Shown here in pieces: positions 2,758 to 46,663 of a stretch of DNA of 64,000 bases; within the stretch, counting starts at the first letter, position 1, and every line of letters begins with the position of its first letter. Both the position numbers and the translations under genes were made by a program. The DNA comes from a virus. The notes below the pieces were generated by a model that had not been told where the DNA came from, did not search any database, and was given only the letters and a program-made list of their open reading frames with translations. The stretch covers positions 86,643-150,642 of IMG/VR virus record IMGVR_UViG_3300049048_000052; one strand, given 5' to 3'.

Positions 2758-3543
2758 ATGACTAAGGCAAGGATAACCTCTGGCTACTGCGAGGGCAAGA
2801 GGGGTGGCGATAATGGGTACTCTCAATTAATGCTAGGTGTACTAATTCCTAAGGATCATGACACCTGTAAATTGTATGGAGCAGTAGAGGACTTCCAACA
2901 ATCTATTGCTATATGTTTAGAGGCTAACGAGCTAATGGATCCCTCATTAGAGCATGTGATGAAGTGGTTACATACTAATATGTTCTCCCTTTCCTCCTAT
3001 GCTTTTATGAAGGGTGAGACCTCTAACCATGAGATGCCCCAGGGATTCCTTCATTATATTGAGGGAGCCATAGAGGATATGAAGGCTGATATAGGGGATG
3101 CACCTGACTTTCTGGTGTACTCCCATAAGAGTCTCATCCACCTGAATGAAATTAGAATTAGAACTAGAGAAGTAGAAAGTAGATTTGTTGGTTGGAAGCG
3201 TAGCTTGGAGATGCAGTTACACCTCAAGGGACCTCTTGCCGTCCTACCGTTTGAGGTGAATGTCCCTCTCTCCTGGTATGAAGGTAAGCATAGTGCCCTC
3301 GTAGAGAAGCTGTTTGGTAAGAGATACCTTCTCCCGATTATTAATTATCATATACAAGTGTTAAACAGACTTTCCTCTTACTTCTTCTGGGCCTCTAGGG
3401 TTCAGGGTAAATTACTAGCTGGTAGATCTGAGGATAGTGGCCTCATTGAGAGATACTGGCAGGGTAAGATTGAGGAATTCGATATTGATTGTGCTAAACA
3501 GAAGGAAGCATATGTCGGAAGAACAATTGGAGCAACAGCCTGA
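2758..3543 (+). CDS. hypothetical protein
   Basis: 261-aa ORF. Confidence 0.5.
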   Translation: MTKARITSGYCEGKRGGDNGYSQLMLGVLIPKDHDTCKLYGAVEDFQQSIAICLEANELMDPSLEHVMKWLHTNMFSLSSYAFMKGETSNHEMPQGFLHYIEGAIEDMKADIGDAPDFLVYSHKSLIHLNEIRIRTREVESRFVGWKRSLEMQLHLKGPLAVLPFEVNVPLSWYEGKHSALVEKLFGKRYLLPIINYHIQVLNRLSSYFFWASRVQGKLLAGRSEDSGLIERYWQGKIEEFDIDCAKQKEAYVGRTIGATA

Positions 3544-25475: not shown

Positions 25476-25754
25476 ATGAAACCAGGACCTAAGAAGGGTA
25501 GTAGTCAGAGTAAATCCCATGTTGCCAAGAGGGCCAAGGCTGTAAAAGGTAAGGCCAATGGTATGTTTAAGGATGGAAGACGTTCCTATCGTTCCATAGC
25601 GGGAGCTAGGAATAGCGATGGAAAAGTTGTGCATCACAAGGACGGTGATAGGACCAATAATTCAAGATCTAATCTAAAGGTCCTGAATGATGGTCCTAGT
25701 AGGCCAGGTAGGAAGACAACTAGTAAGCATGAAAGACTTACTAGACGTAAGTAG
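25476..25754 (+). CDS. small basic HNH (HNH_3-type) endonuclease-like protein
   Basis: 92 aa, K/R-rich, with VVHHKDGDRTNNSRSNLKVL (the HH.DG...NN...NL pattern of HNH_3-type homing endonucleases); ends exactly where a tRNA-like gene begins. Confidence 0.5.
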   Translation: MKPGPKKGSSQSKSHVAKRAKAVKGKANGMFKDGRRSYRSIAGARNSDGKVVHHKDGDRTNNSRSNLKVLNDGPSRPGRKTTSKHERLTRRK

Positions 25755-25924
25755 CCAGTGTAGCTTAAAAGGTAAAGCGTACCCCTCTCAGGGTATACCG
25801 AAAGGGTCCATAGGTAATAGGTGTAGTTGCAAGATTCTGTGAGAGTTATAAACTCCGTATTCGGCAGAGTCCCAGACTGCACAACTATACCTATGGATAT
25901 GAGGGTTCGATCCCCTTCACTGGC
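25754..25924 (+). tRNA. tRNA-like gene (anticodon-arm loop CTCTCA, Glu-like) with about 100-nt insertion after the anticodon arm
   Basis: 5' part 25754..25795: acceptor GCCAGTG, D-arm GCTT/AAAAGGTA/AAGC, stem TACCC/GGGTA. 3' part 25901..25924: T-arm GAGGG/TTCGATC/CCCTT, acceptor CACTGGC pairing 7/7. Confidence 0.35.
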
Positions 25925-26012
25925 GTTGACTAAGATAGAACAATGAGACATAAAGAAATGCCCCTCTATGTAAGACACATAAGAGGGGGTCCAATTAACT
26001 TAGGAGTAAATA

Positions 26013-33787: not shown

Positions 33788-33847
33788 ATCTTAGGGCGTA
33801 AGCCCTTATTCATTCCTCAGTGGCGCAGTGGATAGCGCACCCGCCTT

Positions 33848-34537
33848 TAGGATAGGAGCACTTCTAGGGGAAACCCTTAAAGTGAATGTGGTTAAATTCA
33901 GGGAAGACTAAGTAGATTATGATCAAACTCCCAATGACAGTTAGGACATAGAGGTACTAAGTTGTCTACAGAGTTAATGTCGTTAACTAAGGTTTCATGT
34001 GGAAAACTAGAGATGGCCTTTCTATGGGCTATTTCAACATGTTTGTTATACCCACAGTTAATACAACAAGACCAGTCGAGTTTTGCTGCTACAGCTCTAG
34101 CCCTTGCTCTAACTAAAGCATAGGCTGAGGACCTGTGATGTTTATTGTACATGGCTTCTTCTAAAGTGACATTTAGATTTAGTCCCTTACGATGAGATCC
34201 AAAGCAGGATTTACAGTAGGTTCTGGAGTTACTTATAGGAGTGGTGCATACCAAGCATTTATTCTCGGGTTTCCTCTTGGGGAAATTACGATTATTATGT
34301 GTAGCAGCACAACTCTTACTACAGAACTTAGGGTTAGTTGTTTCCTTATTACAGTTGAGACAATTCATAGTTTATATGTTAATCCTGAGCCAAGCTATTC
34401 GAAAGCCCTATTATATCATGGGTTCGAATAGAAGGTGCAGAGACTTAACAGCCACCACCTAAGGTCATAAGACTATGGTGAAGATAAAGTCCAGACTACA
34501 AACACTCTTGAGTGGCAGCTAAAGCTGTAGTAGGAGG
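33848..34537 (+). mobile_element. group I-like intron in the tRNA anticodon loop (between nt 34 and 35)
   Basis: TTCAGGGAAGACTAAG (33897..33912) and AAGATAAAGTCCAGACTACAA (34481..34501) resemble the group I R and S (P7) elements; terminal G before the 3' exon; about 210 nt of non-ORF sequence. Confidence 0.55.
33898..34368 (-). CDS. HNH homing endonuclease, encoded antisense inside the tRNA intron
   Basis: 156 aa; CINCGYNKHVEIAH...NLVPLCPNCH is a classic HNH motif, plus N-terminal CxxC pairs. Confidence 0.7.
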   Translation of the reverse strand: MNCLNCNKETTNPKFCSKSCAATHNNRNFPKRKPENKCLVCTTPISNSRTYCKSCFGSHRKGLNLNVTLEEAMYNKHHRSSAYALVRARARAVAAKLDWSCCINCGYNKHVEIAHRKAISSFPHETLVNDINSVDNLVPLCPNCHWEFDHNLLSLP

Positions 34538-34595
34538 CTAAGCGGTCGGTCGCAGGTTCGAATCCTGCCTGGGGAGTTTTAGTTAGGAGAAGATC

Positions 34596-42178: not shown

Positions 42179-42733
42179 ATGTTAATAGAGAGGCTCCTAA
42201 TGGAGGGGGCGGATGTATCTATATATTACATAGATAACCTTGATACGGCAATGTTAATGGATGAGTTAACAAAAGCTGTAGAATGGGATACTATGGGTGG
42301 TACTAGAAGGAAGATGGCATGGTTTGGAAGGGGAGAGTATACCTATCGGGATAGACTTCATAAACCTCAGGATATGCCATTGGTCGTTAAGATAGCTAAG
42401 GCACCAGTAGAACGAGTGACTGGCCACACCTACAATGGTTGTCTAGCTAATTGTTATGAGAATGGGAGGATAGGGGTTAACTGGCATTCAGATGATGAGT
42501 CTATACCAGGTTCACCTATAGCCATACTATCTCTAGGTGCAACCCGTACCTTTAGGATGATGCATAAAGTATTAGGTATCAGCAGGGAGTGGAGACTGGC
42601 AGCAGGTACTGTACTTGTCATGTCTGGTCCTACTCAAGAGAACTGGATGCATTGCATTCCTAAAGAGGGAGAAGTTAAAGAGGCTCGTATCAGTCTTACA
42701 TACAGACAAACTAAGTTGACCTCCGTAGATTGA
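42179..42733 (+). CDS. AlkB-like 2OG-Fe(II) dioxygenase (nucleic-acid demethylase family)
   Basis: NWHSDDE (HxD), SLGATRTF, WMHCIP (distal His) and RISLTYRQ (RxSxTxR) match the AlkB signature in order and spacing. Confidence 0.7.
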   Translation: MLIERLLMEGADVSIYYIDNLDTAMLMDELTKAVEWDTMGGTRRKMAWFGRGEYTYRDRLHKPQDMPLVVKIAKAPVERVTGHTYNGCLANCYENGRIGVNWHSDDESIPGSPIAILSLGATRTFRMMHKVLGISREWRLAAGTVLVMSGPTQENWMHCIPKEGEVKEARISLTYRQTKLTSVD

Positions 42734-42775: not shown

Positions 42776-43189
42776 ATGCATAGCAAGTCGAAGGGTAACA
42801 TAGGGCAGTTTTATGCTGCTGCTAAATTGGCCGAGTTAGAGTTCGCCGTATTCACTGAGGAGGGAGATAACTCCAAGGTGGATATAATAGGGGTTAAGGA
42901 TAATATAATACTTAGGTTTCAGGTAAAAGCTGTAACTCCTAAGAATAATACATTAGCTTTAATGCTGAAGAAATCTGGTCCTAATTATAAGTTTAAGTAT
43001 AAAGAGGAGATGTTTGACTACTTTATAGTAGTTGACCTTATTAGCTTTAAAGTATATGCTGTAAGTTCGGAGGTACTAAGAACCCATCAAGATACTTTTA
43101 CTATAAGATTAGTAGCAGCGAAAAACAAGCAGAGTTGTAATACGAATGAGGCAGACGATTACCTCATGGAGAAAGTTTTGGGTCATTAA
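42776..43189 (+). CDS. hypothetical protein (possible PD-(D/E)xK nuclease fold)
   Basis: 137 aa; SKVDIIGVKD...RFQVK spacing resembles a D...(D/E)xK core; weak. Confidence 0.35.
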   Translation: MHSKSKGNIGQFYAAAKLAELEFAVFTEEGDNSKVDIIGVKDNIILRFQVKAVTPKNNTLALMLKKSGPNYKFKYKEEMFDYFIVVDLISFKVYAVSSEVLRTHQDTFTIRLVAAKNKQSCNTNEADDYLMEKVLGH

Positions 43190-43252: not shown

Positions 43253-43311
43253 CTGGTTCTATAAAATAGAACTGGTTGAGGGGGAGTGGTGTAATGGTAG
43301 CCACGCAGGTC

Positions 43312-43857
43312 TTAACTCATTGGAGTTAGTTGGTGTATTAGTTTATAAGCGTTCTTAACTAGATCTCTAGAGAGCATCTTACCACCAGATATCAATTTTA
43401 TAATTGGGTTCTTGCGTGAGTGGTCTAACTGAAATCTAGCTTGAGGATATAAGTCCAGGAAGGATGTGGCAGTATCTTTATTAGAGGCAGCTATTTCTAT
43501 CCTATAAGTCTTAACTTTATAGACTTGTACTAAAAGTTGCTTTATCAGATCTATTAAAGTAGGATCCTGGTTGCAGAAGTAAACATGATTTGTTTTATCT
43601 GTATGCCAGCCCTCACATAAATAGGCCGTATGGGCAGCAATGGAAAGAGGTGTTAGGAGTAAATCATCTGTAGGGGAGATATAGTTCTTCCTAGCTAGAA
43701 AGTTATACTCTGAGGCAGATCTCATTGGTATATGGTACTTCCTTAAGTAAGACCTAATAGTCTTATGGTTACAGGCTAGTAACTGACCTATCTGATAGGG
43801 ATTAAGTTCCTGAGTCAGGTATAGATCCTCAAGTACCTCTTTATTAATTAACTTCAT
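43312..43857 (-). CDS. intron-encoded protein, antisense (HTH plus LAGLIDADG-like, putative homing endonuclease)
   Basis: 181 aa inside the second tRNA intron; N-terminal helix-turn-helix-like segment and AYLCEGWHTDK, loosely resembling a single LAGLIDADG motif. Confidence 0.5.
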   Translation of the reverse strand: MKLINKEVLEDLYLTQELNPYQIGQLLACNHKTIRSYLRKYHIPMRSASEYNFLARKNYISPTDDLLLTPLSIAAHTAYLCEGWHTDKTNHVYFCNQDPTLIDLIKQLLVQVYKVKTYRIEIAASNKDTATSFLDLYPQARFQLDHSRKNPIIKLISGGKMLSRDLVKNAYKLIHQLTPMS

Positions 43858-44111
43858 AATCCTGAGCCTTCATGTAGAAATACATGTTGTGAACGAAGCT
43901 ATATGCGGGAAACGCTTAAAGCCTACAACACTATATGTCTACCAAGATATAAGTAACAGTTTGTAGGATGTAACAATAGCCAATCCGCAGGGAAGATACC
44001 TAGGTATCCCCTCAGAGACTAAACGCTTTGCACCTTAACGTAGAGACGAAGGTGATGATATAGTCCAGACTACAACAGCTTACGCTGGCCTATGAAAGTA
44101 GGAGTAGTAAG
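43314..44111 (+). mobile_element. group I-like intron in the tRNA-Leu anticodon loop (between nt 34 and 35)
   Basis: TCAGAGACTAAACGC (44012..44026) resembles R; GATGATATAGTCCAGACTACAACAGC (44054..44079) resembles S; terminal G; near-identical S region to the first intron. Confidence 0.55.
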
Positions 44112-44266
44112 AGGAACCTGTGCCGCAAGGCGTGAGAGTTCGAATCTCTCCTCCCCCATTTACAGTAGTGAGCACACGGTATGATGTAGGGTTCCCCCTA
44201 CTTGTACTAAGGCTAATACCTTTGCTATATTCACTACTGTAAACATATTGATTGTTTCTAATAATT

Positions 44267-44683
44267 ATGGAAACACAAATGGCATTATTTGGTTTTGGTG
44301 GTTCTAACTCTGCTATCGATGAGTTAAGCCGTGTCTTAGGTGCAAGTAGCTCTATTGCTAGCCAACAGAGTCCCCCGTATGAAATTGGGATCTCTGATCG
44401 TAAACTAGTAGTTAAGTTCATAGTACCTGGTATCGATAAGGATACTGTTGATGTGACCATCCATGATAAGTACGTAGAGCTATATGGCATGCGTAAGAAG
44501 GATGATAAGTTAGCAGTTGAACTGAGTGAGTTCTATTACGGTAAGGTTTATCGTACAGCCCCACTAAGTCAGAGAGTAGACAGAAACTCTGCCTCTGTAT
44601 CTTACTCAGATGGTATTCTGACTCTCTCTATGGATCTATTACCAGTTAATCCTCCCACTGCGGTTAGGGTTAAATTAGGTTAA
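44267..44683 (+). CDS. Hsp20/alpha-crystallin family small heat-shock protein
   Basis: Alpha-crystallin-domain-like blocks (KFIVPGIDKDTVDVTIHDKYVELYG..., SVSYSDGILTLSM); ATG at 44267 preferred over the listed TTG. Confidence 0.55.
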   Translation: METQMALFGFGGSNSAIDELSRVLGASSSIASQQSPPYEIGISDRKLVVKFIVPGIDKDTVDVTIHDKYVELYGMRKKDDKLAVELSEFYYGKVYRTAPLSQRVDRNSASVSYSDGILTLSMDLLPVNPPTAVRVKLG

Positions 44684-44705: not shown

Positions 44706-45218
44706 ATGCAGTTAAACATTATGAGTGGTTCTACGGGGGATCCACCTTGGAGAACAGATGATGTGGGTAGGCGTATCCCAGACCGAACTGGGACAACTAA
44801 GGGTGGTTATATACCGGACTATCCTGGTATCGGTTTCCCTAAGCCTCCTAATACTTTCTATCACCTAATTAACTCAACCTATAAGGCACCTGCTGATATA
44901 CCATGTGATGCTAATAGTGTTGGCACTCAGTTCATCGCTGTGTTCAACTTGGGTGGTGTAAGGAAGGAGGATATTGATATCACTGTCCATCCTGACAGAG
45001 TAGAGATATCTGCTACTAGAAGTCTCAGCGGCCCTAAGTCGTTGAGTCTTTATAGTAGTGAAGTCTCCTGCGGTAAGCTAAGGCGCACCATCCCATTTGA
45101 GGATACTAAGGTCAACATCGAGACAGCTAAGGCTGACTATGATAATGGACTGGTAACTCTCACAATGGACCTGCTTCAACCTAAGCCGCCACCGGCCGTC
45201 AAGGTAGAAATCAAATAA
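44706..45218 (+). CDS. Hsp20/alpha-crystallin family protein (second copy)
   Basis: FIAVFNLGGVRKEDIDITVHPDRVEIS...DYDNGLVTLTM parallels the previous gene. Confidence 0.5.
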   Translation: MQLNIMSGSTGDPPWRTDDVGRRIPDRTGTTKGGYIPDYPGIGFPKPPNTFYHLINSTYKAPADIPCDANSVGTQFIAVFNLGGVRKEDIDITVHPDRVEISATRSLSGPKSLSLYSSEVSCGKLRRTIPFEDTKVNIETAKADYDNGLVTLTMDLLQPKPPPAVKVEIK

Positions 45219-45666: not shown

Positions 45667-45898
45667 TTGTCAGTTTACCTGTCCTGACGTTGTGAAAAGA
45701 TAGGTGTAGGTCATAGGCCTAACTAGCAAGAATTGAGTTCGAATCTCAACAGGTCCATTTCGAGGGCCTGACTTGGTAATCGATTGTTAGCATGAGGAAC
45801 TATGACTGAAGGTGTGTACAACCAAAGTACAGAACAACAAGTGCAACCAATAACATTGTACCCTTCTCAAGGGTAAGTTCTATAGTAGTGTAATCTAC

Positions 45899-46663
45899 TC
45901 AGGCGTTTAGTATACTAAACGCCTGCTCTTTTTTACGCATACAGTAGGGACCACCTAAGTTATATAACCTAAATATAAAAGTCTTAAGGATTTTACCTTG
46001 AAAGGAGAAACCGTACTGATTATTCCAGTTGGGATTCTTACTTTGCAAGTCCCTCATATGTACATTAAGGGATATATCTAGTAGTTTGTTGAGCCTAGAG
46101 GCTAGAGTATACATAAAAGACTTTGAGCATCCATAGGCTGTAAGTCTACGGGAGGACCAACACCCGTCAGAGTCTAGATATCCTCTAATGAAATCTAACT
46201 CGTAGACGCTGTCTATAAGAGGCTCAGGGTAAATCATAGTCTTGGACTTATTACTTTCTAACTTTAGGATAGTAGTTAGATCTCTATGTAGACTAGTGGA
46301 ACATATAGCGAGCTGAAGACAGTTAGAAGCTATATTCCTTATTTTATAATCGGTATTGAGGTTAGATTGTATCTGTTCTAGAATATCCCTGTCCGAGGTA
46401 GTAAATACTATCTGACATCCATTTCTATGTAAGTGACCATCCCCATACAATACACCTAACATCCAAGCTTTAAAGGTGTCCATAGGGAACAATTTATAGT
46501 TCTTAAGCTTAGATAATGGCTTATAGGACATTGCCCCGGAGCTCTGCAGGACTTTGTATATACAATAAGAGGATAGCCCTAATTTAGAACTAATATTTGT
46601 AACAGACTGACCCTCCTTATACATAGTTATAATAGGCGTTGGGTTAATATGAGTAGATTTCAT
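45899..46663 (-). CDS. LAGLIDADG homing endonuclease (two-motif type)
   Basis: WMLGVLYGDGHL and FIRGYLDSDGCW are the two LAGLIDADG motifs; N-terminal HTH-like segment. Confidence 0.7.
   Translation of the reverse strand: MKSTHINPTPIITMYKEGQSVTNISSKLGLSSYCIYKVLQSSGAMSYKPLSKLKNYKLFPMDTFKAWMLGVLYGDGHLHRNGCQIVFTTSDRDILEQIQSNLNTDYKIRNIASNCLQLAICSTSLHRDLTTILKLESNKSKTMIYPEPLIDSVYELDFIRGYLDSDGCWSSRRLTAYGCSKSFMYTLASRLNKLLDISLNVHMRDLQSKNPNWNNQYGFSFQGKILKTFIFRLYNLGGPYCMRKKEQAFSILNA

Follow-up and report, generated by a model that had tools for sequence, protein, structure and literature searches.

Group I introns known from phages, among them those of T4 td, nrdB and sunY, of SPO1 and Twort, and of cyanophage psbA and DNA polymerase genes, are self-splicing, interrupt protein-coding genes and often carry homing endonuclease genes, which lie in the sense orientation. 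A 2014 review (Hausner, Hafez and Edgell; PMC3984707) noted that all phage introns described to date lay in protein-coding genes despite the many tRNA genes that phages carry. Here we analyze a 64,000-nt stretch of viral DNA (IMG/VR record IMGVR_UViG_3300049048_000052, positions 86,643 to 150,642; hereafter the window, whose numbering is used throughout) in which a tRNA-Leu(UAG) gene at 43280-44158 on the plus strand is interrupted between U34 and A35 by a 798-nt intron (43314-44111), with an open reading frame (ORF) of 181 amino acids (aa) running on the opposite strand. We hold with great confidence that this is a group I intron in a tRNA-Leu(UAG) gene, associated with a conserved antisense gene whose product has a LAGLIDADG-type fold. 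In full-text literature that leaves out most subscription journals, and so does not prove absence, we found no description of a phage tRNA gene with a group I intron; nor did we find, in bacteria or phages, an earlier case of a P1 loop filled by an endonuclease gene in antisense.

Among cellular systems, the IC3 intron of cyanobacterial and plastid tRNA-Leu(UAA) genes shares with the phage intron its tRNA-Leu host, its insertion between U34 and A35, a compact P3-P9 core and GNRA loops in the 3' domain. A very short CUU/GAG P1 that leads directly into a GAAA-looped P2 hairpin is presumably shared as well, and the 5' layout (GAGCCUU and then a hairpin) resembles that of the Anabaena intron. The two differ in isoacceptor (UAA there, UAG here) and in host (cell or plastid there, phage here), and whereas the classical IC3 intron is ORF-less and about 250 nt long, the phage intron holds a gene of about 550 nt antisense in its P1 loop; the P4-P6 sequence (AAUCCGCAGGGAA) also differs from that of the cyanobacterial and plastid intron. 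Measured against IC3 membership, the phage intron thus has the insertion between positions 34 and 35 and lacks the UAA isoacceptor, the cellular host and the ORF-less state.

Three further systems bear on the antisense gene. The intron of Synechocystis tRNA-fMet encodes I-Ssp6803I (Bonocora and Shub 2001, cited in PMC3984707); it is likewise a bacterial-type intron in a tRNA anticodon loop with an endonuclease aimed at the anticodon stem-loop DNA, whereas I-Ssp6803I is a sense-encoded protein of PD-(D/E)XK fold and the phage ORF is antisense with a predicted LAGLIDADG-like fold. Antisense endonuclease genes are found in introns for I-DirII of Didymium ribosomal DNA (rDNA) (PMC3073962) and in the L2066 nuclear rDNA introns (PMC9548176), where, as here, the intron sits in a gene for a non-translated RNA and the endonuclease gene on the opposite strand needs a transcript of its own; those enzymes are, in contrast, eukaryotic His-Cys box proteins served by RNA polymerase II, spliceosomal introns and poly(A) tails, and the fold predicted for the phage ORF is LAGLIDADG. 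This parallel in layout suggests a general answer to the expression of a protein from an intron in a non-translated RNA. The single-motif LAGLIDADG enzymes I-CreI, I-MsoI, I-CeuI and I-CvuI resemble the phage protein in being encoded by group I introns, in an invariant acidic residue, followed by Gly, that in the model ends the first helix, and in the pseudo-palindromic target to be expected, but there is no detectable sequence similarity, and the phage ORF stands apart by its AYLCEGWHT motif, its extra N-terminal helix-turn-helix (HTH), its antisense orientation and its place in the P1 loop.

Relative to the literature found, the novelty lies in the class of host gene (phage tRNA), in the antisense P1-loop gene and in an unclassified protein family, while the ribozyme and the homing logic are classical. 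The locus and its nine relatives indicate that phage tRNA genes are also invaded by group I introns and address the gap noted in PMC3984707.

Organization and recurrence of the locus

The two exons were delimited from the sequence and with ARAGORN. The 5' exon (43280-43313, plus strand) consists of the GGGGGAG acceptor strand, the D-arm, the CAGGT anticodon-stem strand and C32-U33-U34 (CTT), reading GGGGGAG-TG-GTGT…CCAC-G-CAGGT-CTT with T43313 as its last base. The 3' exon (44112-44158, plus strand) starts at A44112 and supplies A35-G36-G37-A38, the ACCTG stem strand, a 13-nt variable arm, the T-arm (GAGAG/CTCTC), the CTCCCCC acceptor strand and the discriminator A, reading AGGA-ACCTG-TGCCGCAAGGCGT-GAGAG-TTCGAAT-CTCTC-CTCCCCC-A. 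The 181-aa ORF lies on the minus strand, as the original prediction had it, at 43312-43857, and its stop codon TAA, the complement of T43312, T43313 and A43314, straddles the 5' splice site. At its other end, the complement of the start codon (CAT, 43855-43857) lies 2 nt upstream of the internal guide sequence of the intron. With the guide 2 nt past its start codon and its stop codon lying across the 5' splice site, the gene in its entirety is contained in the P1 loop, a loop of about 550 nt that is nearly all the reverse complement of the gene. This placement, the recurrence of the family in large phage genomes and the existence of free-standing copies of the ORF had all escaped the original prediction.

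Homologous loci were taken from NCBI, JGI and Logan assemblies, from IMG/VR and from JGI metagenomes. The same layout was found in nine distinct loci (L001, L002, L005, L006, L007, L008, L010, L019 and L020), each with an intron of 786-817 nt after U34, the same antisense ORF and tRNA-Leu halves on either side; in all of them the ORF runs antisense to every neighbor and the group I core follows directly after it on the other strand. Most of the host contigs are 100-275 kb long. Of the loci scanned with Rfam RF00028, six (L002, L005 to L008, and L009, which is the same contig as L008) gave 56-79 bits and L001 fell below the gathering score. ARAGORN reported tRNA-Leu(tag) in eight of the nine loci and labelled L006 as tRNA-SeC(tca), where splice sites placed by hand (CTAGA CTT before the intron, a terminal G, and AGGA TCTAG after it) give UAG. 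The identity of the spliced product to viral tRNA-Leu(UAG) genes, described below, and the nine loci that carry the whole arrangement establish that the arrangement in the window is more than chance. One other contig, L034, for which ARAGORN reported a split tRNA-Leu(gag) with a 649-nt intron, has no homologue of the ORF, looks different and more complex, and was left unused.

Structure of the group I intron

A covariance-model search, one of the checks proposed with the original prediction, matched RF00028 (Intron_gpI) at 43845-44086 with 66.8 bits (E 9e-15; gathering score 50) over model positions 1-253. The R-like (TCAGAGACTAAACGC, 44012-44026) and S-like (GATATAGTCCAGACTACAAC, 44057-44076) elements that had been picked out by eye are both present within this match and correspond to the J6/7, P7, P8 and J8/7 region (44012-44066). 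The internal guide UCCU/GAG (43860-43866) serves both exons: its GAG (43864-43866) pairs with CUU of the 5' exon (43311-43313) as P1, with the U43313.G43864 wobble at the 5' splice site, and its UCCU pairs with AGGA of the 3' exon (44112-44115) as P10.

Downstream of the guide, P2 is a hairpin, CAUGUA-GAAA-UACAUG (43871-43886), with a GNRA-type loop and compensatory changes in five of its six pairs. P3 (43894-43899 with 44025-44030), again with compensatory change in five of six pairs, encloses P4 (43904-43909/43984-43989), P5 (43914-43916/43978-43980), P5a (43922-43928/43961-43967) and P6/P6a (43990-43997/44006-44011). The Rfam alignment places J6/7 and P7 (44015 and 44017-44020 with 44062-44066), which form a pseudoknot with P3, as well as P8 (44032-44036/44049-44053), after which comes J8/7. 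P9.0 (44069-44073 with 44104-44108), whose ACUAC/GUAGU becomes ACCAC/GUGGU in L002, L006 and L019, contains the hairpins P9a (44076-44087) and P9b (44089-44102, GAAA loop), and the AAG that follows it ends the 44069-44111 block at the terminal G44111.

These assignments were examined across the relatives by cutting the ORF from each pre-tRNA, keeping the 5' exon with four intron bases and everything from two bases before CTGA[GA]C. In the resulting alignment of 10 ORF-less sequences (A2), pairs were counted under a structure drawn by hand on the window sequence, with 500 shuffles and partner shifts of 1-3 columns as controls. Standard pairs filled 90.9% of the cells under the drawn structure, against a mean of 75.5% in the shuffles and 38-47% in the shifted versions, and pairs changed on both sides numbered 56, against a mean of 30.6 and values of 12-22, respectively; none of the 500 shuffles reached either figure. 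P2, P3, P5, P5a, P7, P9.0, P9b and all tRNA stems covary. P3, P4, P5, P6 and P7 are paired in 100% of cells, and the helix set from P3 to P6a, P5a included, in 94-100%; P4 and P6, although fully paired, are almost invariant and so contribute little evidence of covariation.

The pairings at the splice sites are conserved in the same manner. P1 is paired in 100% of cells, its U.G is invariant in the 10 loci, and its C-G pair becomes U-A in two of them (L002 and L020, which have UUU at the exon end and GAA in the guide, vs CUU/GAG elsewhere). P10 is paired in 85% of cells and shows compensatory change in two of its four pairs (UA to AU, CG to UA), in that relatives with AGGU in the 3' exon carry the guide ACCU and L001, with AGA, carries UCU. 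None of the 10 loci departs from the terminal G or from AG as the first two bases of the 3' exon. What speaks against the structure as drawn is that P1 has just 3-4 bp and that P5b and inner P8 are paired in 38-42% of cells, the latter weakness probably reflecting length variation in the alignment. With RF00028 above its gathering score and covariation across 10 loci, the group I assignment made from the sequence is upheld. A local P1 hairpin at 43310-43329 (UCUUAACUC/GAGUUAG), with its U.G at 43312, was also considered and rejected; it is conserved in no relative and does not yield a 7-nt anticodon loop with a terminal G.

The antisense protein: family, fold and likely function

Database searches returned 35 matches for the ORF, one an identical copy and the other 34 sharing 38-61% identity over the full length; the identical 181-aa protein occurs on a 251,778-bp JGI metagenome contig and on a 183-kb Logan contig. 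Twenty-two columns of the 35-sequence alignment are invariant, E82 among them. An AlphaFold model built from this alignment (pLDDT 92.3) has three helices in its N-terminal domain (residues 6-40) and, from residue 64 to 177, an alpha/beta domain. The HTH-like N-terminus claimed by the original prediction is corroborated by this model and by profiles: residues 2-55 match the HTH part of PHROGs families labelled HNH endonuclease or regulator, and Pfam HTH_23 is weakly matched in 22 of the 35 family members.

The accompanying claim of LAGLIDADG likeness holds at the level of predicted structure and not at that of sequence profiles. In LAGLIDADG enzymes a catalytic Asp or Glu stands at the end of the first helix and is followed by Gly. 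In the model, the C-terminal domain has the LAGLIDADG-type alpha/beta fold, and the motif A-Y-L-C-E82-G83-W-H-T, invariant in the 35 sequences, closes its first helix (residues 70-82); the predicted secondary structure would thus put E82 at the LAGLIDADG catalytic position. Foldseek against BFVD returned weak matches (E 2e-3 to 1e-2), with enrichment for LAGLIDADG proteins of phages, proteins named "Endonuclease" and intein-containing proteins. Several searches count against the assignment. Foldseek against the PDB gave nothing significant at E up to 0.001, with intein endonuclease entries at a probability of 0.75-0.77; neither the ORF nor any of the 35 members matched Pfam LAGLIDADG_1, _2 or _3 at E up to 10; hhalign of the family profile with I-CreI, whose sequence was first checked against the PDB, found no match; and a PDB sequence profile search gave no LAGLIDADG match, phmmer and hmmsearch against the PDB returning weak HTH matches only. 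Hence, of the two families against which the ORF was to be profiled, HTH was matched (PHROG, Pfam) and LAGLIDADG (Pfam, hhalign with I-CreI) was not. A Pfam LAP2alpha match (E 0.21) was dismissed as spurious.

As a separate observation, the HTH module has a wide distribution of its own. When 1.84 billion representative proteins were searched with the profile, the best 150 matches included about 15 that cover the whole protein, making the full-length family a small one, and the remainder of those 150 are long proteins with 4-14 tandem copies of the module. In the global protein set the module (residues ~5-50, consensus NPYEIA..L.C.HKTIR.YL.K..IP) is found in tandem in hundreds of proteins of 250-840 aa, which appear to form a repeat-HTH protein family.

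These properties leave room for a protein that is no homing endonuclease, a DNA- or RNA-binding factor built on a LAGLIDADG scaffold, such as a WhiA-like regulator or a maturase that aids ribozyme folding. Sequence searches detect no LAGLIDADG signature, AYLCEGWHT stands in place of the canonical motif, and the HTH module is common to hundreds of multi-HTH proteins; LAGLIDADG maturases, among them I-AniI and the bI3 maturase, are moreover known from group I introns of organelles. We nevertheless consider such a role unlikely. E82 and the Gly after it, at the end of the first helix, are invariant in 35 sequences at what the model suggests to be the catalytic place of LAGLIDADG enzymes. The gene occurs only within tRNA-Leu(UAG) introns or abutting an intron-less tRNA(UAG) gene, and does so on unrelated large phage contigs, while most phage tRNA-Leu(UAG) genes are without the ORF, the patchy pattern of a mobile element.

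The distribution of intron-less alleles was followed through the predicted ligated junctions. That of the window tRNA (GCAGGTCTTAGGAACCTG) was found on 28 IMG/VR viral contigs, 27 of them within an uninterrupted tRNA-Leu(UAG) gene, and that of most relatives (GCTAGACTTAGGATCTAG) on at least 120 viral contigs, with 112 of those listed within tRNA-Leu(UAG). Intron alleles are a small minority scattered among unrelated large phages, and theirs is therefore the distribution expected of a homing element. Free-standing homologues of the ORF were found in L004, L011, L012 and L016 (ORF coordinates ~1201-1731 or 1501-2031), where each is convergent with an uninterrupted tRNA gene of anticodon UAG and directly adjoins its 3' end. 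This tRNA is 74 nt long with a short variable region (class I-like), and its anticodon loop reads TTTAGAA (TTTAGGA in L016) vs CTTAGGA in the intron-bearing genes; it may be a cleavage-resistant allele, or the arrangement may precede or follow the union of endonuclease gene and intron. How endonuclease genes and introns unite can be tested on such relatives next to intron-less tRNA(UAG) genes.

A homing endonuclease acting as a homodimer would be expected from the model, because each chain has one LAGLIDADG-fold domain. The anticodon stem-loop DNA, CAGGT-CTTAGGA-ACCTG, is pseudo-palindromic around the insertion point, and a target of this kind would suit a homodimeric enzyme. We consider the nuclease step probable. 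The protein is also a candidate for a new meganuclease scaffold, with a fold invisible to profiles and an N-terminal HTH, because its probable target is short, highly conserved and naturally pseudo-palindromic.

The predicted spliced tRNA-Leu(UAG)

Joining 43313 to 44112 (CAGGUCUU to AGGAACCUG) yields what ARAGORN folds as an 81-nt class II tRNA-Leu(tag) with the anticodon loop CUUAGGA. With introns allowed, ARAGORN reported the gene as tRNA-Leu [43280,44158] (tag) i(35,798), whether it was given the region or the whole window; together with the guide pairing, this confirms every coordinate of the original prediction of an intron in a class II tRNA-Leu with anticodon UAG. Identity of the spliced tRNA with viral tRNA-Leu(UAG) genes that are uninterrupted reaches 85%. 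A blastn search of the locus against GenBank phages found 41 nt of the 3' exon to be 92.7% identical to the annotated tRNA-Leu of phage C48C1, and nothing beyond that match, so no close cultured relative is present in that set. The window also encodes separate tRNA-Leu(UAA) and tRNA-Leu(GAG) genes, so that the UAG isoacceptor is not redundant.

That the gene might be dead, disrupted by a mobile element with its halves decaying and no productive splicing, is a reading we find very improbable. It could draw on the shortness of P1, on the lack of an encoded CCA and on the fact that neither default ARAGORN nor the Rfam tRNA model called the split gene at 43280-44158. Such decay would nonetheless be hard to square with acceptor, anticodon, variable and T stems that are paired in 93-100% of cells through compensatory changes across 10 diverged loci, with the invariance of the discriminator A73 in the 10 intron loci of A2, with the conserved and covarying ribozyme core, or with a spliced product 85% identical to intact viral genes. 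Because standard tRNA finders miss split genes of this kind, phage tRNA repertoires and the codon-usage inferences made from them are incomplete.

The position of the splice sites deserves equal attention, as a displacement by 1-2 bases would make the product tRNA-Leu(UAA), as in cyanobacteria and plastids, or tRNA-Leu(GAG). ARAGORN folds both alternative joins as tRNA-Leu, and the classical bacterial tRNA-Leu intron is in the UAA isoacceptor. Yet A would have to be the last base of the 5' exon for the UAA join and the last base of the intron for the GAG join; each breaks the U.G and terminal-G rule as well as the guide pairing, and both were rejected. The guide UCCU/GAG matches ...CUU and AGGA... 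precisely, both pairings covary, the terminal G and the first 3'-exon bases AG do not change in 10 loci, and the two other isoacceptors are already encoded elsewhere in the window. A shifted junction is barely credible on this evidence. The continuous P1/P10 guide and the invariant terminal G fix the splice sites, and the anticodon is therefore U34-A35-G36.

Expression of the antisense gene and proposed mechanism

In the window and in all nine related intron loci, the ORF is on the minus strand relative to a tRNA and ribozyme on the plus strand. Lack of a Pfam family and an orientation opposite to nearly every other window gene are what a chance frame antisense to a structured RNA could offer in its favor, but it has already been effectively refuted by another 34 full-length homologues, as little as 38% identical yet with their motifs conserved and their frame undisrupted, by a confident two-domain model and by free-standing copies outside any intron (L004, L011, L012 and L016). 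The same TAA stop, composed of exon U33-U34 and the first intron base, is found in eight of the 10 loci. In L002 the intron starts with G and the frame continues into the antisense tRNA exon, and read-through of this type accounts for the odd C-terminal tails of some homologues in the protein alignment (A1).

Since pre-tRNAs do not serve as messages for translation, the antisense orientation is understandable; because the gene lies antisense in the P1 loop, a separate minus-strand transcript is needed for it. What counts against this is a sigma-70 consensus scan, which does not cover phage-specific promoters and which found no minus-strand promoter above chance near the ORF: it gave three sites against a shuffled mean of 4.2, with one on the minus strand (44490-44463). 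A terminator consensus scan gave nothing above chance. By eye, GAAGG is seen 9 nt upstream of the ATG and could act as a ribosome-binding site. One base past the tRNA-Leu 3' end begins a long hairpin (44159-44243) with 13-nt perfect inverted arms (TTTACAGTAGTGA/TCACTACTGTAAA) and an inner GTAGGG…CCCTAC stem (minimum free energy -32.7 kcal/mol, z-score -4.6, no T-run), which could be a processing or termination signal for either strand.

We propose the following mechanism. The tRNA cluster would be transcribed from the plus strand, and in the precursor the guide UCCU/GAG would pair with exon CUU to form P1, with U43313.G43864 marking the cleavage site; the same guide would later pair with AGGA of the 3' exon as P10. 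The P3-P9 core would bind guanosine and perform two transesterifications, joining the exons into the 81-nt class II tRNA-Leu(UAG), a self-splicing route that would use the guide and the terminal G. From a separate minus-strand transcript, with a putative promoter of its own, a protein with an HTH and a single LAGLIDADG-fold domain would be made. Most likely as a homodimer, this candidate nuclease would act on co-infecting phages whose tRNA-Leu(UAG) gene has no intron, cutting that gene in the pseudo-palindromic DNA of its anticodon stem-loop, the presumed target, and repair would copy the intron into the cut allele, which is homing. As the full explanation of the locus, with splicing, antisense expression and homing included, a mobile group I intron in a phage tRNA-Leu(UAG) gene appears highly probable, our confidence in the complete mechanism with its homing-endonuclease activity being lower than in the presence of the intron and the gene.

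More tentatively still, and without placing the balance of probability behind it, we suggest that these loci could represent a lineage of mobile group I introns in the tRNA genes of bacteriophages, and the first to be described. Such a lineage would occur in unrelated jumbo phages and be mobilized by an unclassified family of HTH and single-domain LAGLIDADG-fold endonucleases, specialized on the tRNA-Leu(UAG) anticodon stem-loop and always encoded antisense in the P1 loop, the free-standing copies being snapshots from before or after association with the intron. If this is true, the antisense P1-loop placement would uncouple expression of the endonuclease from pre-tRNA maturation and could interfere with it by antisense pairing.

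Other split viral tRNAs and the genomic neighborhood

Group I-like insertions were also seen in other viral tRNAs. A core motif (CAGAGACTANACG…GATATAGTCC) gave at least 127 matches in viral contigs; among the matches listed, seven lie inside split tRNAs reported by ARAGORN, namely Leu, Lys, Ser (twice), Thr and Leu(tag) (twice). Viral contigs also hold tRNA inserts without an ORF (L051, L090, L118, L008 at 3026-3295 and L005 at 2894-3117). Inserts with the core motif are in Lys-UUU (250 nt) and Ser-UGA (221 and 231 nt), and those in Thr-UGU (194 nt) and Trp-CCA (147 nt) are ARAGORN calls alone. Phage tRNA group I introns may thus not be limited to tRNA-Leu.

The window itself holds a further intron-containing tRNA at ~33813-34577, with an RF00028 match at 33837-34513 (54 bits) and a tentative ARAGORN label of Ser(gct). 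Its antisense ORF (33898-34368, 156 aa) encodes an HNH_2 protein and appears to lie in the P5 region rather than in P1. Kinship between the two intron ORFs of the window was considered and rejected; the comparison gave E 0.75, and the first is an HNH protein. Another tRNA at 25754-25925 scores 38.7 bits with the Rfam tRNA model over 172 nt and is reported by ARAGORN as Gly(ccc) with an 85-nt insert. This insert (~85-100 nt, in the anticodon region) holds CAGAGTCCCAGACTGCACAAC, which resembles J8/7-P7-P9.0 of the tRNA-Leu intron, and is too short for a full group I core.

Nearly all ORFs of the window are on the plus strand, and its GC content is ~42%. ARAGORN found 13 tRNAs and a tmRNA-like element, and the ribonucleotide reductase gene has its nearest counterparts in Nodularia siphophages (47% amino-acid identity); we read the window as part of an uncultivated jumbo phage. 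The tmRNA-like element (45668-45984) comes directly after tRNA-Met and was reported by ARAGORN as a permuted tmRNA with the tag ATNNIVPFSRVSSIVV; it scored 45 bits with Rfam tmRNA_permuted (gathering score 47) and 43 bits with cyano_tmRNA (gathering score 70). Just after it, and partly overlapping it, is a 254-aa ORF (45899-46663, minus strand) that matches Pfam LAGLIDADG_3 (E 2.9e-8).

A 137-aa ORF at 42776-43189 (plus strand) matches Pfam PDDEXK_5 (PF11645, E 1.9e-10), the I-Ssp6803I family. It ends 90 nt upstream of the split tRNA-Leu, its end overlapping the start of a tRNA-Lys (43180), and looks like a free-standing homing endonuclease gene in the same tRNA cluster. By eye, a clearly similar protein is encoded by a sense-strand ORF within a group I intron of a viral tRNA-Thr(UGU) (L124, 10973-11718). 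Two tandem Hsp20/alpha-crystallin genes (44252-44683 and 44706-45218, plus strand) follow just downstream of the tRNA-Leu, and upstream of it is a gene for an AlkB-like 2OG-Fe(II) oxygenase (42179-42733, plus strand), all of them unusual cargo for a tRNA cluster region.

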